Assembly (NCBI GenBank): GCA_963712115.1 | Contig: CAVQGX010000030.1 | Location: 96,001-160,000, forward strand | Direction: 5' to 3' | Length of the DNA: 64,000 nucleotides | Origin: an uncultured delta proteobacterium | GTDB taxonomy: Bacteria > Desulfobacterota > Syntrophobacteria > BM002 | Shown: one piece after another, positions 13,339-35,804 of the stretch | How positions within the stretch are numbered: the stretch's first letter is position 1 | Layout: each line of letters opens with the position of its first letter | The notes under the pieces: generated by a model | Databases searched by the model: none | What the model was told of the DNA's origin: nothing | The model's input: the letters and a program-made list of their open reading frames with translations, nothing else | Translations under genes and position numbers: made by a program

Positions 13339-13580
13339 ACACCAAAGTTTAAGAGGACAGAAGACAGAAGACAGAAGACAGAAGTCAGAGGTCAGAGGTC
13401 AGAGATCAGTGAGTTATAGGCTGATCTTTTGCGTATAACGAATAACGGATAACGGATAACGGATAACATCTCATACCGCTCACTGCTCACCGCTACCGCT
13501 TACCATAAGGACTACCTCTTGAATCAATTGTAACACCTATGCTACTTAGGATGGACACTATAGTGAAAAGGAAGTGCTAA

Positions 13581-15428: not shown

Positions 15429-15730
15429 CACGCAGAGCTCTCGGGGCATAGAGTAAGAAATCAGGGGTCGGGGGTTAGAAGACAGAGCAGTCATTTGCCT
15501 TCGGCGTCATTAGGTCACTACGCTGCGCTGTCATTTGTTGTAAAAGGTAGAAGACAGAGGGCAGAGGACAGACGACAGAAGTCAGAGGTCGGAGATCAGA
15601 GGTCGGAGATCAGAGGTCGGAGATCAGAGGTCGGAGATCAGAGGTCAGAGATCCTAAGTTAGAGATTAACGAATAACGAATAACAAATAACATCTCATAC
15701 CGCTCACTGCTTACCGCTTACTGCTTACAA
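15426..15730. repeat. Composite array with four perfect tandem copies of TCAGAGGTCGGAGA and the 63-bp core
   Basis: 14-bp tandem at about 15582-15651; core at 15489-15551; ATAACGA and CTTACCG arrays follow. Confidence 0.9.
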
Positions 15731-16471: not shown

Positions 16472-16726
16472 GTCAGGGGTCGGGGGTCAGGCGTCAGAGG
16501 GCAGAGGACAGAGGTCGGAAGTCAGAGGTCGGAGGTCAGAGAAAAGCGAGTTATTGGCTGATCTTTTGCGTATAACGTATAACAAATAACGAATAACAAC
16601 TCGTACCGTTTACCGTTCACGACTTAAAGGCTTTTAACCATTTGACTACTCGACCAATCGACGAGTTGACTAATTCTCTAATCAACCAATTGACGAACTC
16701 CTGTGAGCTTTCAGCTGTGAGCTGAC

Positions 16727-25071: not shown

Positions 25072-25232
25072 ATGAAACTCCCCATATCACTCTGCAAATC
25101 AAGGGCCTCTGACTTGCGCCACTCCCGAGCATATAATTAAAGCTTGTTTGAAGGCAAACAAATAAAACAATTTTATCTAAATTTTGATTGTTTCCCTTGG
25201 CCCATATTTTGGGCCTCACGGTGGTGTAGTTA

Positions 25233-25248
25233 TGCAATCGGTATGCCA
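25233..25248 (-). promoter_or_regulatory. Sigma54 promoter for the PilZ gene
   Basis: Minus strand TGGCAT-ACCGA-TTGCA. Confidence 0.7.
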
Positions 25249-25443
25249 TAAATCCCGGATGTATAGAAAATAATTCGAATTTTTTGAATCGATTTTTCCA
25301 CAATATTCACGAACCACCATTTACAAATTAAAGGTTTCTACGGCTTCCTGTGAGCTATGAGCTTTCAGCTGTCAGCTAACTTGACGCCTTCAACATTTTG
25401 AACGACTTGAACGCTTTGAACGACTTGCCCCCCTCTTTCCCCC

Positions 25444-25473
25444 TTGACTTTCACCTAACTTTCACCCTATAAT
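25444..25473 (+). promoter_or_regulatory. Sigma70 promoter of the SOS cassette with an overlapping direct-repeat operator
   Basis: TTGACT-N18-TATAAT; ACTTTCACC at 25447-25455 and 25458-25466. Confidence 0.7.
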
Positions 25474-25488
25474 TCAAACATAGTTTGT

Positions 25489-25960
25489 AAATCCGAAATC
25501 CCAAGCACGAAATCCTAAACAAATTCAAATGTCCAAAGCACAAAATTCAAAACAATACGATTTGGAAGATCGCACTCTGGCTTTTGCTAAAGATGTACGC
25601 AGTTTCGTGAAAAAACTGCCGAAAACTTTAGCCAATATCGAAGACGGCAGACAGCTGATCAAAGCCCCCGGCTCCGTTGGTGCCAATTACATTGAAGCTA
25701 ATGAAGCTTTAAGCAAAAAAGATTTCATTATGAGAATTAAGATATGTCGCAAGGAGGGGAAAGAAAGCCGATATTGGCTGAGGTTGATTAGCACGGAAGA
25801 CATTAGAGAACTTGAAGAAGAAAGACGAGATTTGGAAAGAGAAGCCAGCGAGCTCACCAGTATTTTTGGTTCCATCCTGACTAAAAGCTCATGATGTTTT
25901 GGTGATTTGAAATTGGGATTTGGGATTTGTTTAGGATTTAGGATTTAGATATTGGGATTT
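25489..25960 (+). mobile_element. Four-helix-bundle cassette 1 (AAATCCY arms)
   Basis: Left arm 25489-25553 and right arm 25895-25960 are in-register inverted heptamer arrays; mobility is inferred. Confidence 0.6.
25529..25894 (+). CDS. Four helix bundle protein (23S rRNA IVP / bAvd-like)
   Basis: DLEDRT..F, QLIKAPGSVGANYIEA, SKKDF, ESRYWLRL. Confidence 0.9.
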   Translation: MSKAQNSKQYDLEDRTLAFAKDVRSFVKKLPKTLANIEDGRQLIKAPGSVGANYIEANEALSKKDFIMRIKICRKEGKESRYWLRLISTEDIRELEEERRDLEREASELTSIFGSILTKSS

Positions 25961-26038
25961 TCCCTAATCACCGTTTACCGTTCACCATTTACGAATTGAC
26001 TAATCAACGAATTGACCAATTGACTCAGAGGTATACCC

Positions 26039-26641
26039 ATGCAACTCACAAAACAGCAAACCCGAGTCTATAGCTATCTGGAGACCTATCTTCGCCGGAA
26101 AGGTAGGCCGCCATCTTACCAAGAAATCCAGGATTACTTTGGCTTTGGTTCCCTAAACTCAGTGGTCAAGCACCTCAAGCAGCTTGAACGCAAGGGCTAT
26201 CTGGAGAGTCCCTGGGGTAATCAGAAACGGGCTTTTCGCCTTCTACCTCTGCGAACAACTGCGGCTACCATACCCTTTCTCGGGAGGGTAGCTGCCGGCG
26301 CTCCCATCGAGGCTGTAGATATACCCGAAGCGGTGGAAGTGCCCGAAAGCCTGCTTGCCGGCGGTAACAACTTCGCCCTTCAAGTGCAAGGAGAGTCGAT
26401 GATCGATGAGGGCATTCGCGACGGGGATGTACTCATAATCCGAAAACAGGACCATGCTGACAATGGTCAGACCGTGGTGGCACAGATCGAAGGGGAGGCC
26501 ACAATAAAGAAGTTTTACCAGCGGGACGGTAGGGTGGAACTACGACCGGCGAATGAGGAACTGAAACCTCTCGTGGTTCCCGCCGAAAAGGTAGAAATCA
26601 TCGGCGTGGTTGTAGGGCTAGTCCGGCATTATAAGAGATAA
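26039..26641 (+). CDS. lexA: LexA repressor
   Basis: LT..Q, PPSYQEI winged HTH; VAAG cleavage site; GESM serine and TIKK lysine. Confidence 0.95.
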   Translation: MQLTKQQTRVYSYLETYLRRKGRPPSYQEIQDYFGFGSLNSVVKHLKQLERKGYLESPWGNQKRAFRLLPLRTTAATIPFLGRVAAGAPIEAVDIPEAVEVPESLLAGGNNFALQVQGESMIDEGIRDGDVLIIRKQDHADNGQTVVAQIEGEATIKKFYQRDGRVELRPANEELKPLVVPAEKVEIIGVVVGLVRHYKR

Positions 26642-26657
26642 CGCAAAGCGTTTTCCG

Positions 26658-27200
26658 GCGAGACGAGCGAGACGGGAGGTCGAGCGAGACGGGGATTAAA
26701 TATCAAAATGATTACGCAGGTAATTACATGAGAAAGGGGCGCCATTATGAGTAAAAGCAAAAAGGTTAGTCGGTTCGAAGATTTGGAAGTTTGGCAGGAA
26801 GGATGTGATCTCGCTGTTCAAATTTACAAGCTGTCGAGAGAAGGAAAACTTGCAAGGGATTATGGTCTCAGGGATCAGATGACTAAATCCGCAGTTTCTA
26901 TTCCCTCAAACATAGCCGAGGGTAAGGAGCGTGAGACGGCACCAGAACTTATCCGCTACCTTTACATTGCCAAAGGCTCTACTGGTGAGTTGCAAACACA
27001 AATATACATAGCTCAGAGAATCGGCTACGTGGACGAAGGAACATCCTACAACCTTATTCAGCAAACCAAAGTTTTGTCCAAAAAACTAGGCAGCTTCATT
27101 CAATACCTTAAAAGAAACGTTGAGCTAGCGAGAAAGTGAGACAAGATAAAAAGGTCTGATCATTACTCGTCTCGCCCGTCTCGCTCGTCTCGCGTCTCGC
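26658..27200 (+). mobile_element. Four-helix-bundle cassette 2 (GCGAGACGG arms)
   Basis: gcgagacgagcgagacgggaggtcgagcgagacggg ... ctcgtctcgcccgtctcgctcgtctcgcgtctcgc; mobility is inferred. Confidence 0.6.
26747..27139 (+). CDS. Four helix bundle protein (23S rRNA IVP / bAvd-like)
   Basis: FEDLEVWQ, DQMTKSAVSIPSNIAEG, AKGSTGELQTQ, GY. Confidence 0.92.
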   Translation: MSKSKKVSRFEDLEVWQEGCDLAVQIYKLSREGKLARDYGLRDQMTKSAVSIPSNIAEGKERETAPELIRYLYIAKGSTGELQTQIYIAQRIGYVDEGTSYNLIQQTKVLSKKLGSFIQYLKRNVELARK

Positions 27201-27210
27201 GAAAATTGCT

Positions 27211-28446
27211 ATGCTTCGCGAAAAGATGATAAGCGAAATCTTACACTTAGATATCCGCGACTTCTGCATTGCCCTGGAACGGCAGCGACGGCCTGATCTG
27301 AGGGAATGGCCGGTAGTCGTCGCACCGGGGCAGGGGCGAACGGTGGTCCAGGCTGTCTCTCCCGAAGCCCGAGAGGAAGGCATACATCCGGGTATGGTCG
27401 TGGCTCGGGCCCGACAGTATTGCCGCCGTCTTACTGTGCTGCCTCCGGATTTCTCGCTCTATCGGCAAGCCCAGGAAAAGATAGTGACCGCTTTAGGAAG
27501 GTTTTCGCCCTTGGTGGAGCCGGCCTCCTGGGGACATTTCTTTGTTGATGCCACCGGGACTCGTCGCCTCTGGGGGGGGTTGCTCGATAGGGCTGATCTG
27601 ATGCGGCGATTGGTGGATACAGAATTTCAACTGGATACTGCTGTGGGTGTGGCCAGCAACAAACTGGTGAGCCGGGTTGCCTCCCGGGTGGTGAAGGCTC
27701 GGGAATTGTGTGATGTTTTTCCTGGACTGGAGGCTTCTTTCCTCTCACCTCTGGCGGTAAATGTTCTTCCCGGGGTGGGGGAAGTGACCACCGCCAGATT
27801 GCTAGCCGAACTTAATCTTCAAACCGCGGGAGAATTAGCCCACGTCTCCCCAATGCTTTTGAGTCAGATATTTGGAGCCGTGGGGCAAAGGCTTCGGAGC
27901 ATGGCTTTGGGAGAAGATCCCTCACCGGTGCTAACACCGAAAGCCGTGCCCATGTTGCGGGAAGAGGTTCAACTGCCGGAAGATGATAATCACCGGCATA
28001 GGTTGTTGGGTTATCTCTATGGGCTCGTTGAAGCACTGGGCCGCCGGTTGCGTTCCCAAAATCGCTGTCCCGGTGAACTGGCCCTTACAGCGACCTATGC
28101 AGACGGTGTTCAGGCGAGGGCGCGGGAGCGACTTGCTGTTGCCGGCTGTGAATTTCATTTGGACAGTTTTCTATATGAGGCAGCGTTACGGCTTTTCACT
28201 CAGGCTGTTCAGCGACGTATACGCTTAAGACGTTTGTCTCTAAACGTCGCCCATCTCCAGACCCCTTTCGGCCAACTGGCCTTATTCCCCTGGGACGACC
28301 CCGGCCGGGGCAAAGAGGTCAAGCTACTACGGGCTATCGACCAAGTCCGCCACCGTTTCGGTAACGAGGTGCTTTACTATGGACGCACGGAGGTCAGACG
28401 ACGGAGGACAGAGATCAGACGTCAGAGGTCAGAGGACAGAACTTAA
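27211..28446 (+). CDS. imuB: Y-family polymerase homolog, ImuB-like (catalytic acidic residues degenerate)
   Basis: HLDIRDF instead of DMDAF; SWGHFFVD instead of SIDEAFLD; QLALF clamp motif; upstream of dnaE2; last ~20 aa are encoded by a repeat arm. Confidence 0.8.
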   Translation: MLREKMISEILHLDIRDFCIALERQRRPDLREWPVVVAPGQGRTVVQAVSPEAREEGIHPGMVVARARQYCRRLTVLPPDFSLYRQAQEKIVTALGRFSPLVEPASWGHFFVDATGTRRLWGGLLDRADLMRRLVDTEFQLDTAVGVASNKLVSRVASRVVKARELCDVFPGLEASFLSPLAVNVLPGVGEVTTARLLAELNLQTAGELAHVSPMLLSQIFGAVGQRLRSMALGEDPSPVLTPKAVPMLREEVQLPEDDNHRHRLLGYLYGLVEALGRRLRSQNRCPGELALTATYADGVQARARERLAVAGCEFHLDSFLYEAALRLFTQAVQRRIRLRRLSLNVAHLQTPFGQLALFPWDDPGRGKEVKLLRAIDQVRHRFGNEVLYYGRTEVRRRRTEIRRQRSEDRT

Positions 28447-28906
28447 GGGGTGACCAAAAATGCGCATTAATTCTGCAAAAGAGCTGAAGGTCTATCAAGA
28501 AGCTTACAGCTTGGCGATGGAGATTTTTGAAATCAGTAAGCAATGGCCACCCGAAGAGAAGTATTCTCTCATAGATCAGGTCAGACGATCATCCCGCTCA
28601 GTCTGTACAAATTTGCGTGAGGCCTGGTCGAAGAGGAGATATAAAGCACATTTCGTCAGCAAATTAACTGATTCCGATGGTGAAAATAGTGAGACTGATA
28701 CCTGGTTGGATTTTGCAAAAGATTGCGGATACGTGGAAAAAAGTGATCACACTCGACTGACGGAGAGATGTACGCGTGTCGGAAAGATGCTTGGGTCTAT
28801 GCTCAACAACCCTACACCGTTTTTAAGACGCTGACTTCTGATCTCCGATCTCCGATTTCTTATTTGCTGACCTCTGACCTCCGACTTCTGACCTCTGTGA
28901 TAGACG
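28389..28906 (+). mobile_element. Four-helix-bundle cassette 3 (GTCAGAG arms)
   Basis: ggaggtcagacgacggaggacagagatcagacgtcagaggtcagaggacaga ... ctgacttctgatctccgatctccga..ctgacctctgacctccgacttctgacctctg; mobility is inferred. Confidence 0.6.
28460..28834 (+). CDS. Four helix bundle protein (23S rRNA IVP / bAvd-like)
   Basis: ELKVYQ, EEKYSLIDQVRRSSRSVCTNLREAW, ETDTWLDFAKDCGY. Confidence 0.92.
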   Translation: MRINSAKELKVYQEAYSLAMEIFEISKQWPPEEKYSLIDQVRRSSRSVCTNLREAWSKRRYKAHFVSKLTDSDGENSETDTWLDFAKDCGYVEKSDHTRLTERCTRVGKMLGSMLNNPTPFLRR

Positions 28907-28933
28907 ATTTTAACGGCTCGGGACCGGAAGCCA

Positions 28934-31903
28934 ATGTTTATTCATCTCCACACTCACTCCTGTTACTCGTTGATGCGCGGCGCCAGTCAGCTGGAAGCAC
29001 TGGTCACAGCAGCGCGCCGGCGCGGTATGACCCATCTGGCCATCACTGATACCAATGGCTTCTATGGTCTCCCCAATTTTCTTGAAATAGCCAGAAAACA
29101 TAAAATCTCTCCCATTGTGGGAGTTCAGGTAACCGCCCGGGACGGAGAAGCGGTACTGCTGGCCAGGACCCCTGAAGCCTATCCGTACCTGAGCGAACTG
29201 GTAAGTTGTCGACATCTAGAGGATACTTTTTCCCTGACTTCAGCTCTGGCTTCCGGTCTTCCCGGCTTGGCTGTGCTTAGTTCTGATTTGGAGCTGCTCT
29301 CAAGGCTACAAGGGTGTGCCGAGCTCTATGTGGAAATACGTCCTGGTGCAGAAGGGGAGGGGCCTTTAAGATTTGCCCGGGAACGCCAGTTACCCAGAGT
29401 GGCCACCAATGCAGTCTACTTCGCCGATCCGGAAGGCTATTCCTTGCACCGATTGCTGCGCGCCATTGATTTGAACACCACCCTTACCAATCTACCCGAG
29501 GATGAAGTGGTCCACCCGGGACAGTGGTTAAAATCTACCGGACAAATGGCAGTCCACTTTCCCCATTGCCCAGAGGCTATGGCTGAAGCTATTCACCTTG
29601 CTCATCGCTGCCACACGGAGTGGAACTTCAGTGGCCAGATCTTTCCTCACTACCGGGATCAGGAGCGGGATCACTTTCAACTCTTACGACAAAAATGTTT
29701 GGAAGGAGTGAACTGGCGCTACGGTGAGATGAATCCGGCGGTGGCCGAGCGTCTGGAAGAAGAGCTTTCCCTTATTCGGGACAAAGGTTTCACCGACTAT
29801 TTCTTAATCGTAGCAGACATTGTCCAGGATGCACCAATAACCTGTGGACGGGGCAGTGCTGCCGCAAGTCTGGTGAGCTATCTTCTCGGCATTACCCACG
29901 TTGATCCCATCCGCCACCAGCTTTTCTTTGGCCGATTTCTCAGTCCCAATCGGCGGGACTTTCCCGACATTGACGTGGATTTCCCCTGGGATGAGCGGGA
30001 TGAAATACTCGATTCTGTGGAACGTGCCTATGGCAGTGAACGAACCGCCATGGTGGCCAATCACGTAGGTTTTCGCAGCAGGGCTGCAGTTCGGGAGGTG
30101 GCCAAGGTATATGGAATAACACCGGCGGAAATCAAAGAGGTAACCAGGCGGCTTTCCTTTTTCGGTCGCCCCACAAAGATCCCGGAGCGAATGGCCCGCC
30201 ACCCCAAATTCAGGAATTTACACCTGGAACCACCATGGCCTGAAATTTTCCAGTTAGCCGGTCGGTTGGAAGGTATTCCCCGCCACCTTTCCGTGCATTG
30301 TGGCGGCACTATTATTGTTCCAGATCAGGTTCAGCGCTATGTGCCTGTGCAGCGGGCCACTAAAGGGGTGCGAGTAATTCAGTGGGAAAAGGATCAAGCC
30401 GAGGCGGCCGGTCTGGTAAAGATCGATCTATTGGGTAATCGCTCTTTAGCAGTGATTCGTGACACCCTTGCTGCTATTCGCCACAACACCGGGAGAAATA
30501 TCTCTTATGCCCAGCTCAACCCTGTTGATAATCCTGCCACCCAGGAGTTGATTGCCAGGGGTGAGACCATGGGTGTTTTTTACGTGGAATCACCTGCCAT
30601 ACGCCAGCTACAGCAAATGACCGGGCGGGGTGACTACGAGCATTTGGTCATTCACTCATCGATTATTCGCCCGGCAGCCAACCGCTACATTTTGGAATAT
30701 GTGCGACGCCTCAAAGGTGGTTCATATAGGAGCCTACATCCGGTTCTGGATGAGGTGCTCGCCGAGAACTATGGCATCATGGTGTACCAGGAGGACGTCT
30801 CCCAGATTGCCATGAAACTGGCGGGGTTCGATCCTGCCGAGGCTGACACTTTGCGCAAGATTTTGTCCTGGAAAAGTAAAGAACGACTGGCCGACTATCG
30901 CACCCATTTTTTTGAAGGCAGCCGCCAAAGAGGGGTGAGCCGCGAGGTAAGCGAAACTGTTTGGGAAATGATCGAATCTTTCGGGGGCTACAGCTTCTGC
31001 AAGCCTCATTCGGCCAGCTATGCCCTGGTGAGCTTCAAGTCAGCTTATCTCAAGGTACATTATCCTGCCGAGTTCATGGCTGCGGTGATTTCCAATGGCG
31101 GGGGGTATTATTCCACTTTTGCCTATGTTTCCGAGGCCAGGCGGATGGGGCTACAGGTTCTGGGGCCGGATGTCAACGGTAGCGCCATCGAATACACAGG
31201 CAAAGATCGAACTTTGCGGGTGGGATTGATGCAACTTCAAGGATTTCCACGTGATGTTGCCGAGACCATCGTCAGCGAACGGCTTGAGAATGGGCTTTTT
31301 AACTCCCTGGACGATTTTTGTCTGAGAGTTAATCTTGAACCTGCCGCCGCCCGAATTTTAGTGCAAAGTGGGGCTTTAGACAGCATCTCCGGCGGGCTAA
31401 ATCGGCCGCAAATGCTCTGGCGGTTTTATGGTGAACCGAAAGATCAGGCCGTTGGCCAATCCTTTTCCCTTGTGCCCGTTGCCATCGATCCATCCCAATG
31501 GCCCCAGGTTGAAGACTATGATCGCTCTACCAAACTGTCCCATGAACGGGAGACCCTGGGTTTCATACTTTCAGTTCACCCTTTGAGGGTTTATGGTCGA
31601 AAGATTGCTGCCAGTGGGCGCAAAATCGTGCCGGCCAGTGAGCTCTCCAGATACGTGGGCCGAAGAGTAACCCTTGCAGCATGGTCCATAACCGGAAAAG
31701 AGGTAGTTACTAAAAAGGGCGACCCCATGGAGTTTGTCTCTTTCGAGGATGAGACCGCCATCTTCGAGACCACCTTCTTCCCCAAAGCTTACCAACGCTT
31801 CTGCCAGATACTGGATATGAACCGCGCCTATCTCCTCACCGGTCTAGTTCAAGAACAGTACGACACGGTGAGTGTTAATGTGGAGCAGATCCAGCGATTG
31901 TAG
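28934..31903 (+). CDS. dnaE2: Error-prone DNA polymerase III alpha (DnaE2/ImuC)
   Basis: PHP HLHTHS, GRGSAAAS, PDIDVDF, SVHCGG, KIDLLG, YSFCKPHS; short 989 aa form in lexA-imuB context. Confidence 0.9.
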   Translation: MFIHLHTHSCYSLMRGASQLEALVTAARRRGMTHLAITDTNGFYGLPNFLEIARKHKISPIVGVQVTARDGEAVLLARTPEAYPYLSELVSCRHLEDTFSLTSALASGLPGLAVLSSDLELLSRLQGCAELYVEIRPGAEGEGPLRFARERQLPRVATNAVYFADPEGYSLHRLLRAIDLNTTLTNLPEDEVVHPGQWLKSTGQMAVHFPHCPEAMAEAIHLAHRCHTEWNFSGQIFPHYRDQERDHFQLLRQKCLEGVNWRYGEMNPAVAERLEEELSLIRDKGFTDYFLIVADIVQDAPITCGRGSAAASLVSYLLGITHVDPIRHQLFFGRFLSPNRRDFPDIDVDFPWDERDEILDSVERAYGSERTAMVANHVGFRSRAAVREVAKVYGITPAEIKEVTRRLSFFGRPTKIPERMARHPKFRNLHLEPPWPEIFQLAGRLEGIPRHLSVHCGGTIIVPDQVQRYVPVQRATKGVRVIQWEKDQAEAAGLVKIDLLGNRSLAVIRDTLAAIRHNTGRNISYAQLNPVDNPATQELIARGETMGVFYVESPAIRQLQQMTGRGDYEHLVIHSSIIRPAANRYILEYVRRLKGGSYRSLHPVLDEVLAENYGIMVYQEDVSQIAMKLAGFDPAEADTLRKILSWKSKERLADYRTHFFEGSRQRGVSREVSETVWEMIESFGGYSFCKPHSASYALVSFKSAYLKVHYPAEFMAAVISNGGGYYSTFAYVSEARRMGLQVLGPDVNGSAIEYTGKDRTLRVGLMQLQGFPRDVAETIVSERLENGLFNSLDDFCLRVNLEPAAARILVQSGALDSISGGLNRPQMLWRFYGEPKDQAVGQSFSLVPVAIDPSQWPQVEDYDRSTKLSHERETLGFILSVHPLRVYGRKIAASGRKIVPASELSRYVGRRVTLAAWSITGKEVVTKKGDPMEFVSFEDETAIFETTFFPKAYQRFCQILDMNRAYLLTGLVQEQYDTVSVNVEQIQRL

Positions 31904-31964
31904 TATTGGTCAACTGGTCAACTAGTCGATTGGTCAAAGGTCGGTGAAGGAACGGTAAACGGAT

Positions 31965-32243
31965 CAAGCAGAGACTGGTCTATCATGGCTCAAGCTTTGA
32001 ATTAACAGTTGAACTACGCAAACAGAGACTGCCGGTGATGAAAATTCGCTGATTCTCAATGGCAGGCGCGGTCTCAGTCAGCATCCGCGCTGAATGACTT
32101 CATTAGTTCCTGCCAACGCAAAGGGATCTCTGGCGCAGTTCATCTGTAATCGGCTTGGCTATCTAACTGGTGATACTTTTGAACATGGAGAGGAAATAAC
32201 TTCTACTGGGCTCATGATACTGAGAAATGACCTGGCCGAGTGA
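31965..32243 (+). pseudogene. Decayed four helix bundle gene (cassette 4, CGGTAAA/TTTACCG arms)
   Basis: 32112-32243 reads ANAKGSLAQFICNRLGYL..., compare IAKGSTGELQTQIYIAQRIGYV in 26747; frameshifted fragments FELTVEL, GDE, VSV and NDFI upstream; arms at 31942-31962 and about 32243-32302. Confidence 0.65.
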
Positions 32244-32380
32244 CTGTTTGCCGTTCAATCCGTCACAACAACACTGTTTACCGCTTACCGTTCACTGTTT
32301 ACGACATATCGATTTCATTGACTTAACAAATCTACCCATGTTATTAAGACACTTCCTCAATCTGATGGAGTAAAGACTCG

Positions 32381-33598
32381 TTGCTTGAAACGACCGAAAA
32401 ACCTACTTCGCCTGTCAAAATTGGAGTGCGACAACACTCCACTCCTATCCTTTTCAGTTTGTGCATACTGACCTTCAGCAGTGCGAACTTGATGCTTAGC
32501 TTTTTTCTTCCTGTGTACATGAAAGCACAGGGCCTAACTGACGGTCAAATTGGAACAGTATTTGGGCTTATGTCCATATCTGCTCTGATATTGATGTTTC
32601 CTTTGGGTGTCCTTTCGGACCTTTTCCCGCCGCGACGACTAGTGCTTTATGGTGTTTGTATCTTTATTCTTTATTCTTGGCAGATTCTTACGGCGGAAAT
32701 TTATTGGCAATTTCTTCTGGTTGCTCCATTGGGGGGGCTAGCAGTTTCTACTTTTTTTATCGTTCTATATGCTTTGTTTTTGAAAGTAATAGACAAGAAC
32801 CAGGTTGGCAAGAAAATCGCCTTTTACCAGTCTGGCATGTATCTTGGCCTCGGAATTGGGCCTGCTATCGGTGGACTGCTGATCCGTGAGGGAGGTTTTG
32901 GAGCCCTGCTTTGGGGGGTGCTGGCTGGAGGACTGGTTGTTTTGATTCTCGTTTTGAAGTTGCCTGAAACAGACACTATCCGTCTAGATCTGGGCGGTTA
33001 TAAGCGCGACCTCCATCAGGGCCGAATTGTCCTTTTCCTTCTCCTTGTTTTTACTTATCCCATTCATTTTGGGGTTGAGCAGACTGCCCTTACTTTGCTC
33101 ATGAAAGAGAGCCTTGGTTTTTCCTTTACCAACATCGGTCTAGTTTATCTCATGATCGGCATCTGGATGGCTTTCCTTGCTCCTTTTGCCGGGCATCGCT
33201 TTGATACTAGTCAGAGCCTTCGAGCTCTTCTTATCTGTGGATTGGCCATTTCTGGAACTTTTCAAATTCTTACCGCCATGGTCTCCTCCCTTCCCTCTAT
33301 GGTCATAGTGCGGCTCCTCCACACCGTAGGTGATGTAATGATGATCCTGTCAATAGGAGTGATGACTGCTGCTTTTTTCCCCGAGGCGAGAATGGGAGGC
33401 AACTCTGCAGTTGTTGTGGCCATTCGTACCTGTGGCATATTCACGGGGAATTTAGGATCTGGTTTCATCAATGGTGCACTGGGCTACGGTTACAGCTTTG
33501 CCATCAGCGGAGGTGTCCTCCTACTTTTTGTAATCTTGACAGGCGGTGCCATGGGACGCCTCCTGATAGTCAACAAGGACTCGGACTCCTCTAATTAG
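32381..33598 (+). CDS. MFS transporter
   Basis: About 12 TM segments; GVLSDLFPPR motif A-like; GPAIGG. Confidence 0.85.
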   Translation: MLETTEKPTSPVKIGVRQHSTPILFSLCILTFSSANLMLSFFLPVYMKAQGLTDGQIGTVFGLMSISALILMFPLGVLSDLFPPRRLVLYGVCIFILYSWQILTAEIYWQFLLVAPLGGLAVSTFFIVLYALFLKVIDKNQVGKKIAFYQSGMYLGLGIGPAIGGLLIREGGFGALLWGVLAGGLVVLILVLKLPETDTIRLDLGGYKRDLHQGRIVLFLLLVFTYPIHFGVEQTALTLLMKESLGFSFTNIGLVYLMIGIWMAFLAPFAGHRFDTSQSLRALLICGLAISGTFQILTAMVSSLPSMVIVRLLHTVGDVMMILSIGVMTAAFFPEARMGGNSAVVVAIRTCGIFTGNLGSGFINGALGYGYSFAISGGVLLLFVILTGGAMGRLLIVNKDSDSSN

Positions 33599-34751: not shown

Positions 34752-35804
34752 ATGAAAAAGGTAGCATATCTGGCTATAGATGTACATGCAGGTCACTGTG
34801 TTCTCGGCCACATGGATTTTGATGGAACTTTTATTGGAAACAGAAGATTTCCCACATCCGAGCGACACATTATCCAGGCCCTCAAAGCTGTTAAAGCAAA
34901 GGAGAAGTATCTGGCACTGGAAGAAAGTAACCTTGCCTATTGGGCTGCCCAGGTGGCCAGACCCTATGTAACCGAAGTCATCTCCTCTGATCCCAGGGAG
35001 AACGCCTTGATCTACCGCAGTGCCAACAAGAGAGATAAGGTTGATACCCACAAGTTGTGCCGTCTTCTTAGACTGGGGGAGTTGAACCGGGTTTATCATG
35101 CTGAAAATGATGACCGCGCCATATTTAAGTCGGCGGTTCAACACTATATAGATCTTCGCGATCAGCAGGTGGTGTTGAAGAACAAGATTAAAGCTATGTA
35201 CCGTCACTGGGGTGTTATTGAGGTAACAGGCCAAGCCGTCTATGGCACCAGCCGTGATGATTATCTGCAAAGGGTGAAGCATCTTCATATTCGCAATCAA
35301 CTTCATCGTCTCTATTGTCTAATGGATGAAACCGAGTCCATGCAAAAAAGAGCTCTTAAGGCAATGAAGCAACTCGGGCGTAAATATCCTGAGATCAAAG
35401 AATTCGAAAAGATGCCTGGCATAGGGGAGATTCTTTCCCATATTTTCGATGCCTTCATTCAAACTCCCCACCGCTTTGCTCATAAGCGTAAACTCTGGCG
35501 CTATTGCCGCTTAGGGATCACCGATCGCTCCAGCGACGGTAAACCGCTGGGATTTAAACGGCTGGACAGATCCGGTGTCTCAGAACTCAAAGCCTTGAGC
35601 TATCGAGCATGGCTTGGTGCCATGGGAGGCGATAACGAGGTTAGAAAGTTTTACTCACGCTCCTTGCGGCAGACTCTAAGCCATGTCCATGCCAGACTCA
35701 ATACCCAGCGAAAGATCATTGCCGTCATGTACGGCATGTGGAAAAGAGGAGATGCCTATAGGCCTGAACTGTTCCTGGATTCGCCACAGATGAACGTTGT
35801 CTAA
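34752..35804 (+). CDS. IS110-family transposase/recombinase
   Basis: DEDD RuvC domain (AIDVH, LEES, KRDKVD); PGIG; C-terminal GITDRSSDG serine motif. Confidence 0.9.
   Translation: MKKVAYLAIDVHAGHCVLGHMDFDGTFIGNRRFPTSERHIIQALKAVKAKEKYLALEESNLAYWAAQVARPYVTEVISSDPRENALIYRSANKRDKVDTHKLCRLLRLGELNRVYHAENDDRAIFKSAVQHYIDLRDQQVVLKNKIKAMYRHWGVIEVTGQAVYGTSRDDYLQRVKHLHIRNQLHRLYCLMDETESMQKRALKAMKQLGRKYPEIKEFEKMPGIGEILSHIFDAFIQTPHRFAHKRKLWRYCRLGITDRSSDGKPLGFKRLDRSGVSELKALSYRAWLGAMGGDNEVRKFYSRSLRQTLSHVHARLNTQRKIIAVMYGMWKRGDAYRPELFLDSPQMNVV

Follow-up and report, generated by a model that had tools for sequence, protein, structure and literature searches.

Background

To our knowledge the PF05635/TIGR02436 proteins form a very large family without established function, known mainly through the intervening sequences (IVSs) of ribosomal RNA (rRNA) and through their kinship with Avd. 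In the available excerpts of PMC4990558, the 23S rRNA IVS of Coxiella burnetii (helix 45) has 28-bp terminal inverted repeats around the S23p open reading frame (ORF) and is cut by RNase III, the S23p protein is probably not made in vivo, and ORF-bearing IVSs of Leptospira are cited. The excerpted text of PMC10053308 gives PF05635 as homologous to Avd, and that of PMC4679880 describes the heptamer repeats of marine Beggiatoaceae as mostly intergenic, in 169 sets that are direct and only one that is inverted. Here we describe a 64,000 nt stretch of DNA from an uncultured delta proteobacterium (contig CAVQGX010000030.1; the window refers to this whole stretch), in which genes of the PF05635 family, below called four-helix-bundle (4HB) genes, are enclosed by complementary repeat arms and interleaved with the genes of a lexA/imuB-like/dnaE2 operon.

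Our best explanation is that these units are IVS-like cassettes, each formed by a stem whose loop contains a 4HB ORF, located in the spacers of a messenger RNA (mRNA), and that gene and arms are inherited as one unit. We put the probability of this reading at about 0.68. It builds on the anatomy, specificity, generality, turnover, unit inheritance, purifying selection and polarity observed in the analysis.

The operon and its cassettes

All positions are given in whole-stretch numbering, and all operon features lie on the + strand at 25.4-32.4 kb. The ORF list and profile searches give the order promoter-4HB1-lexA-4HB2-imuB-like-4HB3-dnaE2-like-decayed 4HB4, in accordance with the preliminary description, and the inserts sit in the 5' leader, at the two gene junctions and at the 3' end of the operon. 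The three intact cassettes and their host genes are:

25489-25536 (+): left arm of cassette 1, AAATCCY units, holding the 4HB1 start codon at 25529
25529-25894 (+): 4HB1, 121 amino acids (aa); PF05635 E 2e-11, 44.5 bits; TIGR02436 64.8 bits
25913-25960 (+): right arm of cassette 1, GGGATTT units
26039-26641 (+): lexA, domains LexA_DNA_bind and Peptidase_S24
26658-26691 (+): left arm of cassette 2, GCGAGACGR units
26747-27139 (+): 4HB2, 130 aa; PF05635 E 4e-34, 117.3 bits; TIGR02436 113.4 bits
27166-27201 (+): right arm of cassette 2, CGTCTCGCY units
27211-28446 (+): imuB-like Y-family polymerase homologue, domains IMS and IMS_C
28386-28447 (+): left arm of cassette 3, GTCAGAG-type units
28460-28834 (+): 4HB3, 124 aa; PF05635 E 5e-33, 114 bits; TIGR02436 101.3 bits
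28831-28899 (+): right arm of cassette 3, CTCTGAC-type units, holding the 4HB3 stop codon at 28832
28934-31903 (+): dnaE2-like polymerase gene, by profile matches

The three intact 4HB proteins all exceed the curated cut-offs of PF05635 (33.8 bits) and TIGR02436 (24 bits). They had been described as divergent from each other, and in the protein alignment 4HB3 and 4HB1 are indeed only 24% and 13% identical to 4HB2. Each intact gene is enclosed by inverted arrays with a unit of 7-9 nt and a motif that differs per cassette; the earlier claims that each gene is bracketed by inverted degenerate tandem arrays of differing motif, and that start and stop codons can lie inside the arms (ATG 25529, TGA 28832), were thus both confirmed.

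A cassette consists of one 4HB gene, a conserved ribosome-binding context and two complementary arms, the unit being 470-560 nt long, and each arm holds about 3-8 degenerate tandem copies of the 7-9 nt unit. The arms were called as inverted pairs, and their tandem nature was taken from Tandem Repeats Finder (TRF). They are 48 nt long and 71% complementary in cassette 1, share a 19-nt core of 100% complementarity in cassette 2 (26658-26676 with 27175-27193), and form pairs of 24-40 nt with 81-85% complementarity in cassette 3. In the predicted minimum free energy folds of the cassette RNAs the arms pair with each other, by 51, 29, 46 and 26 pairs for cassettes 1 to 4. Arms differ between cassette types and are shared within a type. 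The ribosome-binding context, RAAGGGGCRC a few bases before the ATG, is strict in 6 of the 13 copies in the source genome (G000 below; other G-numbers denote the genomes of relatives) and occurs in many relatives as well. At the 5' side of 4HB2, AAAGGGGCGCC is followed by the ATG.

Specificity of the arms within the genome

A locus was counted as wrapped at an inverted-flank score of at least 28, with equal flank sizes for 4HB loci and controls. All 13 4HB loci of G000 are wrapped, against 103 of 4673 other crude ORFs (2.2%) and 19 of the 1084 ORFs of 90-160 aa, and the enrichment is highly significant (Fisher p about 7e-22). Whether arms are commoner around 4HB genes than around other genes had been set beforehand as a test of the idea, and the answer is clearly positive. 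Among the other bracketed ORFs are insertion sequence (IS) transposases, whose terminal repeats are of the ordinary kind, some housekeeping genes and three GxxExxY genes.

For G000, TRF gave 4676 rows, including 2115 of period 7, and after merging there are 3812 arrays covering 2.3% of the genome; these are about 72% intergenic and mostly 7-mers. The arm motifs belong to families that are common genome-wide (ACCTCTG with 120 arrays, AAATCCG with 103, AAACGGT with 29 and ACGGGCGAG with 23), hence they are not private to 4HB genes. Across 13 genomes, sampled over 60 kb each, array cover is 0.9-2.0% in those with high 4HB copy number and 0.4-0.8% in those with low copy number. The congeners G013 and G002 are array-rich despite few 4HB copies (G002 has 1 match and 1.8% cover), and the link between array density and copy number is weak and confounded by kinship.

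This abundance bears on a rival explanation, in which the hairpins came first: inverted arrays would be generic in an array-rich lineage, like repetitive extragenic palindromes (REP), bacterial interspersed mosaic elements (BIME) or short tandemly repeated repetitive (STRR) sequences, and 4HB genes would enter or stay in existing loops, as rRNA IVSs do at helix tips. The genome-wide motif families and the array-rich congeners with few 4HB genes agree with it. So does the orientation of neighbouring arrays, since a partner within 100 nt is inverted for 206 arrays and direct for 21, and these 206 gene-less hairpins have the same polarity as the cassettes, with a G-rich 5' arm in 150 against 48 and ties in the rest. 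As laid out in the next two sections, we nevertheless consider it unlikely that the hairpins preceded the genes.

Generality across phyla

Because the alignment of the 13 cassettes was too diverse for a locus scan, a 5-sequence alignment of the 4HB2 clade was used, and the resulting broad sample is biased towards that clade. It comprises 80 4HB2-like loci from public genomes of many phyla, 72 of them with assessable flanks. Inverted flanks scoring at least 28 were found at 51 of the 72, compared with 0 of 66 control flanks taken 600-900 nt away, and the direct-repeat score reached the same value at 10 of the 72. The arms are again tandem 7-9-mers. A score of at least 28 is also reached by 11 of 15 loci from congeners and a single sister genus; of the others one scores 27, two are N-masked and one is a fragment. 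With all sets pooled, 80 of 104 cassettes reach the threshold. The packaging hence belongs to the 4HB family across phyla and not to G000 alone.

In the 66 loci with full flanks, array cover is 19-24% in the first 100 nt on either side of the gene and 1-2% beyond 300 nt. That arrays in other phyla peak only beside the gene speaks against hairpins that were there before it, as does the search for an older outer inverted pair, which was seen in 0 of 59 cassettes at a score of at least 28 and in 1 at a score of at least 24.

Turnover of cassettes among congeners

The dnaE2 orthologue was sought in genomes of the same genus (g1), and 15 regions were compared. The preliminary description had proposed to compare the SOS operon of relatives for the presence of each cassette, and we find filled, scarred, swapped, moved and gene-less states, so the cassettes are not fixed at orthologous positions. 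The order is lexA-[GGTAAAC-armed 4HB]-imuB-dnaE2 in G006 and lexA-[GCGCATAGC-armed 4HB]-imuB-dnaE2 in G013, G005 has two further cassette types, one per junction, and in G012 and G009 a cassette lies 3' of dnaE2. No 4HB gene is present at either junction of G008, where a scar at lexA-imuB retains the ORF tail and a stub of the right arm. In G010 a GCGCATAGC-type remnant at lexA-imuB (arms, about 130 nt of interior and an intact 3' end) accompanies an intact copy at imuB-dnaE2, while G007 has two 4HB3-type copies whose identity stops right past the right arm. Inspected by eye, these copy pairs of G010 and G007 show no visible target duplication.

The lexA-imuB junction thus holds four different cassette types in G006, G013, G005 and G000. 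Conversely, two cassette types are found at different junctions in different species; the GGTAAAC type, for instance, is at lexA-imuB in G006 and after dnaE2 in G012 and, as a pseudogene, in G000. Cassettes have been gained, replaced, duplicated to the neighbouring junction and decayed among congeners, and the unit of gene plus arms at operon junctions, as first proposed, proved to be heritable and relocatable.

A short relic next to cassette 2 may belong to the same history:

26642-26650 (+): relic cgcaaagcg, probable left-arm remnant of an older GCGCATAGC-type cassette, identified by eye through comparison with the intact cassette that occupies this junction in G013, and too short for statistics

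Such relics of an older arm type beside 4HB2 would suit an origin of the hairpins before the genes, and so would G011, which has gene-less GCGAGACG hairpins at both junctions; in one hairpin arm a 33-nt stretch is identical to the left arm of 4HB2. The occurrence of the same gene with the same arms at different sites argues against that order of events. Moreover, the G010 remnant and the G008 scar indicate that at least some of the scars and gene-less hairpins arose by decay.

Synonymous divergence (dS) gives some timing. Between G000 and G007 it is 0.37 for 4HB3 and 0.35 for dnaE2, in keeping with vertical descent. With a dS of 0.77 between them, compared with 0.34 for dnaE2, the copies of the GGTAAAC type in G006 and G012 are paralogues that predate the species split. 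The operons of G008 and G013 are nearly identical, with flanks of 97-98% identity and a dnaE2 dS of 0.07, one with the scar and the other with the cassette, hence a recent deletion in G008. For the pair L025 and L026, a faster divergence of the cassette than of its flanks was considered and rejected, as the downstream host gene is equally diverged. A separate observation concerns locus L024 (G011:C1:204816-206330), where a 4HB gene of the 'MAKFRF' clade is split after about 8 codons by an insert of about 130 nt bearing palindromes of its own, which looks like a small element inside a cassette.

The clustering of 4HB genes in this operon is real. Of the 14 PF05635 matches in G000, 3 fall into this stretch of 7 kb, along with the pseudogene that the profile does not detect; a 4HB gene is located in or beside the operon in at least 9 of the 11 congeners that could be assessed, and one Desulfatiglandales record among the 80 broad loci also has lexA-[4HB]-imuB. 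These facts would be explained if the Avd-like 4HB proteins were accessories of the mutasome, working with error-prone polymerases as Avd works with the reverse transcriptase of a diversity-generating retroelement (DGR). The turnover, however, makes this highly unlikely. G008 and G011 keep the operon without an intact 4HB gene, the distant relatives G021, G026, G027 and G028 have imuB-dnaE2 without a cassette, mutually divergent 4HB types fill one and the same junction, copies decay to pseudogenes, and the same cassette types are found in unrelated operons (ABC-transporter and nuo genes). In addition, 4HB3 reaches 32 bits against a DGR Avd cut-off of 80, and no reverse transcriptase was found in the genome.

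The fourth cassette and an outer inverted pair

The decayed cassette and the inverted pair that reaches into it comprise the following features:

31984-32250 (+): decayed 4HB4, with deletions and frame breaks; tblastn fragment NAKGSL..LGYL
32274-32312 (+): right arm of cassette 4, GTTTACC units, 85% identical to the right arm in G012
25965-26030 (+): left half of the outer pair, an ACCGTTT array then an AATTGACY array (TRF 25970-25992 and 25994-26024)
31905-31962 (+): right half of the outer pair, a TGGTCAAC array then GGTGAAGGAACGGTAAACGG, the final part being the left arm of cassette 4

4HB4 has no PF05635 match at E <= 0.001 and can be recognised only at the DNA level, as a decayed homologue: four pieces of 31984-32312 align, at 82-96% DNA identity, with the intact post-dnaE2 cassette of the congener G012. 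The ends of the cassette (31940-31971 and 32274-32305) pair in the predicted fold by 26 pairs. Together, alignment and pairing substantiate the fourth, pseudogenised copy that had been claimed.

A two-layer inverted pair (25960-26035 / 31900-31965) encloses the whole 5.9-kb lexA..dnaE2 block, its right half mirroring the left as GGTCAAYT then AACGGTAAACGG. The predicted duplex has -58 kcal/mol, compared with -22.7 +/- 4.1 for shuffles (z -8.6). The pair may be a by-product, as its outer layer is at the same place as the left arm of cassette 4, the decayed one.

Association between protein and arms

The preliminary description had further proposed to test whether the clade of a protein predicts the motif of its arms. 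Similar arms are found in 6 of 6 pairs with at least 80% protein identity, in 31% of 26 pairs at 60-80%, in 7% of 148 pairs at 50-60% and in about 1% below 50%. Protein and arm similarity are correlated (Mantel r 0.31, with 0 of 999 permutations as high, for a kin set that is not independent). The association is thereby upheld, and the predictive power of protein similarity for the arm motif extends down to about 55-60% identity.

The 4HB proteins themselves are functional and under strong purifying selection, with a ratio of nonsynonymous to synonymous divergence (dN/dS) of 0.04-0.10 in 6 of 7 pairs, the seventh being saturated at synonymous sites. The arms show a fixed polarity: the 5' arm has more G than C in 67 cassettes against 8 with the reverse and 5 ties (p 1e-12). 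As an inverted repeat reads alike on both strands, this polarity is a property of the hairpin and not of gene orientation.

One might take these observations as signs of co-specificity, in which the tandem units of the arms would be bound by the 4HB protein encoded between them, as RNA, single-stranded or double-stranded DNA, in order to regulate, protect or mobilise the cassette, and in which protein and arm motif would co-evolve; this is compatible with the cassette reading and would add a function to it. The tracking of arm motif by protein similarity, the purifying selection and the fixed polarity are all consistent with it, and the heptamer AGTGCTG is shared by records of Longimicrobium, Anaerolineae and an unclassified bacterium at 51-60% protein identity, longer than neutral non-coding DNA should last. 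In addition, 4HB3 matches the PDB entries 2rld and 2gsc (E about 4e-7), each of which comprises five chains. It should be noted, though, that common descent of the gene-arm unit, with concerted evolution of complementary arrays, predicts the same association, so that recognition is not implied by it. Further, each motif family also includes tens to more than 100 arrays lacking a 4HB gene, the commonest family (ACTAGGC, 144 arrays) arms no 4HB gene in G000, unrelated motifs are found within the 4HB2 clade at 46-50% identity, and both the number of units (about 2.5-8) and their length (7, 8, 9 or about 16 nt) vary. We therefore regard co-specificity as possible, if rather doubtful.

A more far-reaching version appears quite unlikely to us. 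Here a 4HB ring would read the units of its own arms in a recombinase-free mobile cassette, protein and arms would co-evolve, and the location in the SOS operon would be no coincidence: induction by damage would couple cassette expression to repair synthesis, and the neighbouring error-prone polymerases, by switching template at the hairpin, would copy the cassette into new spacers. If true, 4HB reader and cassette would constitute a mobile element of a new class, and a very large family of unknown role would gain a function.

Promoter and transcription

Upstream of the first cassette we find:

25444-25473 (+): sigma-70-like promoter, TTGACT-18-TATAAT, 11/12 matches

This is the only strong + strand sigma-70-like match in 25200-32500, and no convincing + strand terminator is predicted between the operon genes. 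Between the -35 and -10 hexamers lies the direct repeat CTTTCACC-TAA-CTTTCACC (25448-25466), which is unique in the window and in G000 at 0-1 mismatches. In G008 the same promoter is found about 40 nt 5' of lexA, and promoter and repeat are conserved in G011 and G005. Judged by position and conservation, the CTTTCACC repeat is a candidate operator of a self-contained SOS operon.

Seven RNA-labelled runs include part of the stretch, and 4 were examined, as mixed-community contigs with 92-99% likeness. Some contig joints bypass cassettes (e.g. 26693 to 27168) and were considered as a trace of excision. They were rejected as such, for reasons given below, since gene-less hairpins, located elsewhere in the genome or in relatives, are their most likely source; they speak neither for excision or co-transcription nor against them.

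Proposed model and points against it

In the model we favour, that of IVS-like cassettes in mRNA spacers, promoterless cassettes would be read through from the single upstream promoter, which is presumably LexA-controlled. In the RNA the arms would fold the insert out of the host transcript, and by analogy with rRNA IVSs a double-strand RNase may cut them. The G-rich-first polarity may avoid an exposed C-rich, Rho-loading 5' arm while the loop is being transcribed. The element would persist as a hitch-hiker and not as a part of the mutasome, and movement by host recombination or template switching is our default guess.

Several points weigh against this model. As had been stated before, the ORF list holds no transposase, reverse transcriptase or other recombinase inside the cassettes, and RVT_1 is absent from the whole assembly. 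No RAYT or transposase partner turned up either, in work that included no transposase search tied to the arm ends. Below the arm threshold are 24 of the 104 pooled cassettes, and 4HB1 is an exception to the polarity with a C-rich 5' arm. G000 is unusually array-rich, with its 3812 arrays and 206 gene-less hairpins, and the roughly 2% of ordinary genes that are bracketed include rplR, serC, ispG, argB and mraY, so arms by themselves are not diagnostic in this genome.

At the RNA level, the cassette-bypassing joints have sides of only 19-29 nt with other letters between. Mismatches in the arms show no excess of sense-strand G.U wobbles (91 vs 85), and transversions are about as frequent as transitions (178 vs 176), hence selection for RNA pairing is not visible. 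In a comparison aimed at co-evolution of the two arms, complementarity in orthologous pairs is only slightly higher within cassettes (mean score 40.5) than between them (35.8), a difference too small to weigh either way. Finally, rnc (PF14622, PF00636) was not found in the 94%-complete G000 assembly; as it is present in 5 of 5 relatives tested, its absence is probably an assembly gap.

Host genes and neighbouring repeats

In NCBIfam the Y-family gene is below every DinB cut-off and the DnaE paralogue is under all cut-offs; the domains and the gene order fit a mutasome operon. Two further dnaE paralogues are found elsewhere in G000, and no imuA is seen in the ORF list of the stretch. The imuB-like gene may have its true start at ATG 27226. 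Its final ~20 codons, which give an Arg-rich tail, and its stop codon lie within the left arm of cassette 3 (28386-28446), and imuB-like relatives without cassette 3 align only up to residues ~393-403. Arms can thus lengthen or shorten host genes, which is of consequence for annotation.

Elsewhere in the window, 13352-13504, 15549-15728 and 16472-16724 contain the same array block of CAGAGGT-type, ATAACGR and TACCGCT arrays, in the same order and orientation in three intergenic regions, which suggests modular repeat mosaics rather than independent arrays. An ORF at 34752-35804 (350 aa), presumably an IS transposase judging by its sequence, is situated 2.4 kb 3' of the operon, in surroundings that are array-rich too.

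The GxxExxY genes (PF13366, PD-(D/E)XK-like) deserve a separate remark. G000 has five:

C46:9416-9766, G000: GxxExxY gene
C31:229316-229666, G000: GxxExxY gene
C31:167808-168158, G000: GxxExxY gene
C31:175116-175469, G000: GxxExxY gene
C31:145236-145589, G000: GxxExxY gene

Short inverted arms (scores 26-34) flank 3 of the 5, and the GGGGCRC-ATG ribosome-binding context of the 4HB cassettes is also present at 4 of the 5. Possibly this packaging thus has the GxxExxY genes as another cargo.

Comparison with known systems

Already known are the protein family, its kinship with Avd (in the excerpted PMC10053308) and the design of stem plus ORF inside 23S rRNA (in the excerpted PMC4990558). In the literature, in a search that covered few subscription journals, we found no description of this design outside rRNA, nor of PF05635 genes whose arms consist of tandem repeats.

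Like integron cassettes, the present ones have small promoterless ORFs that need an upstream promoter, and integrons also have variable, hairpin-folding recombination sites. They differ in that complementary halves flank the ORF on both sides, in place of one downstream attC, and in being scattered in ordinary operons; no integrase or attI was seen among the ORFs around the operon. With REP, BIME, REPIN and miniature inverted-repeat transposable elements (MITE) they share the many gene-less intergenic hairpins between operon genes, some of them derived from a gene-bearing form. Their arms, however, are tandem arrays of many unrelated motifs and not one conserved palindrome.

As in the cyanobacterial STRR sequences and the TAACTGA repeats of Beggiatoaceae, intergenic tandem 7-mers are abundant here and form several families per genome. 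Unlike in the Beggiatoaceae, inverted pairs enclose a specific gene family, and the terms '23S', 'four helix' and 'intervening' do not occur in the excerpted text of PMC4679880. The Avd protein of the Bordetella phage BPP-1 DGR is a related four-helix bundle, and 4HB3 has sub-threshold matches to bAvd and DivGenRetAVD (NF033474, 32 bits against a cut-off of 80; PF22296, 38.3 against 40). Unlike in DGRs, neither the cassettes nor the assembly contain a reverse transcriptase; no pair of template and variable repeats was seen, and none was searched for.

The closest likeness is to the 23S rRNA IVSs, in which, according to the excerpts of PMC4990558, the same protein family sits in the loop of a stem made by terminal inverted repeats, the sporadic distribution is taken as horizontal spread, and there is no internal recombinase. 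The host here is an mRNA operon and not the tip of an rRNA helix: the cassettes sit among protein-coding genes, and 25200-32500 has no Rfam match at E <= 0.1. The arms are degenerate tandem arrays of 7-9 nt units that vary per cassette. In contrast to the S23p of Coxiella, as given in the excerpted source, the ORFs here follow a strong ribosome-binding context and evolve under purifying selection.

The conserved non-coding packaging turns a 'function unknown' into testable questions of binding, RNA ends and mobility. For these the locus is a natural test bed, with three divergent intact cassettes, three arm motifs and one presumably damage-inducible promoter, and in the congeners the same junctions can be studied filled, empty, scarred or with another cassette swapped in. 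The cassettes also link two features that had each stood unexplained, the intergenic heptamer arrays and the ORF family of the rRNA IVSs.

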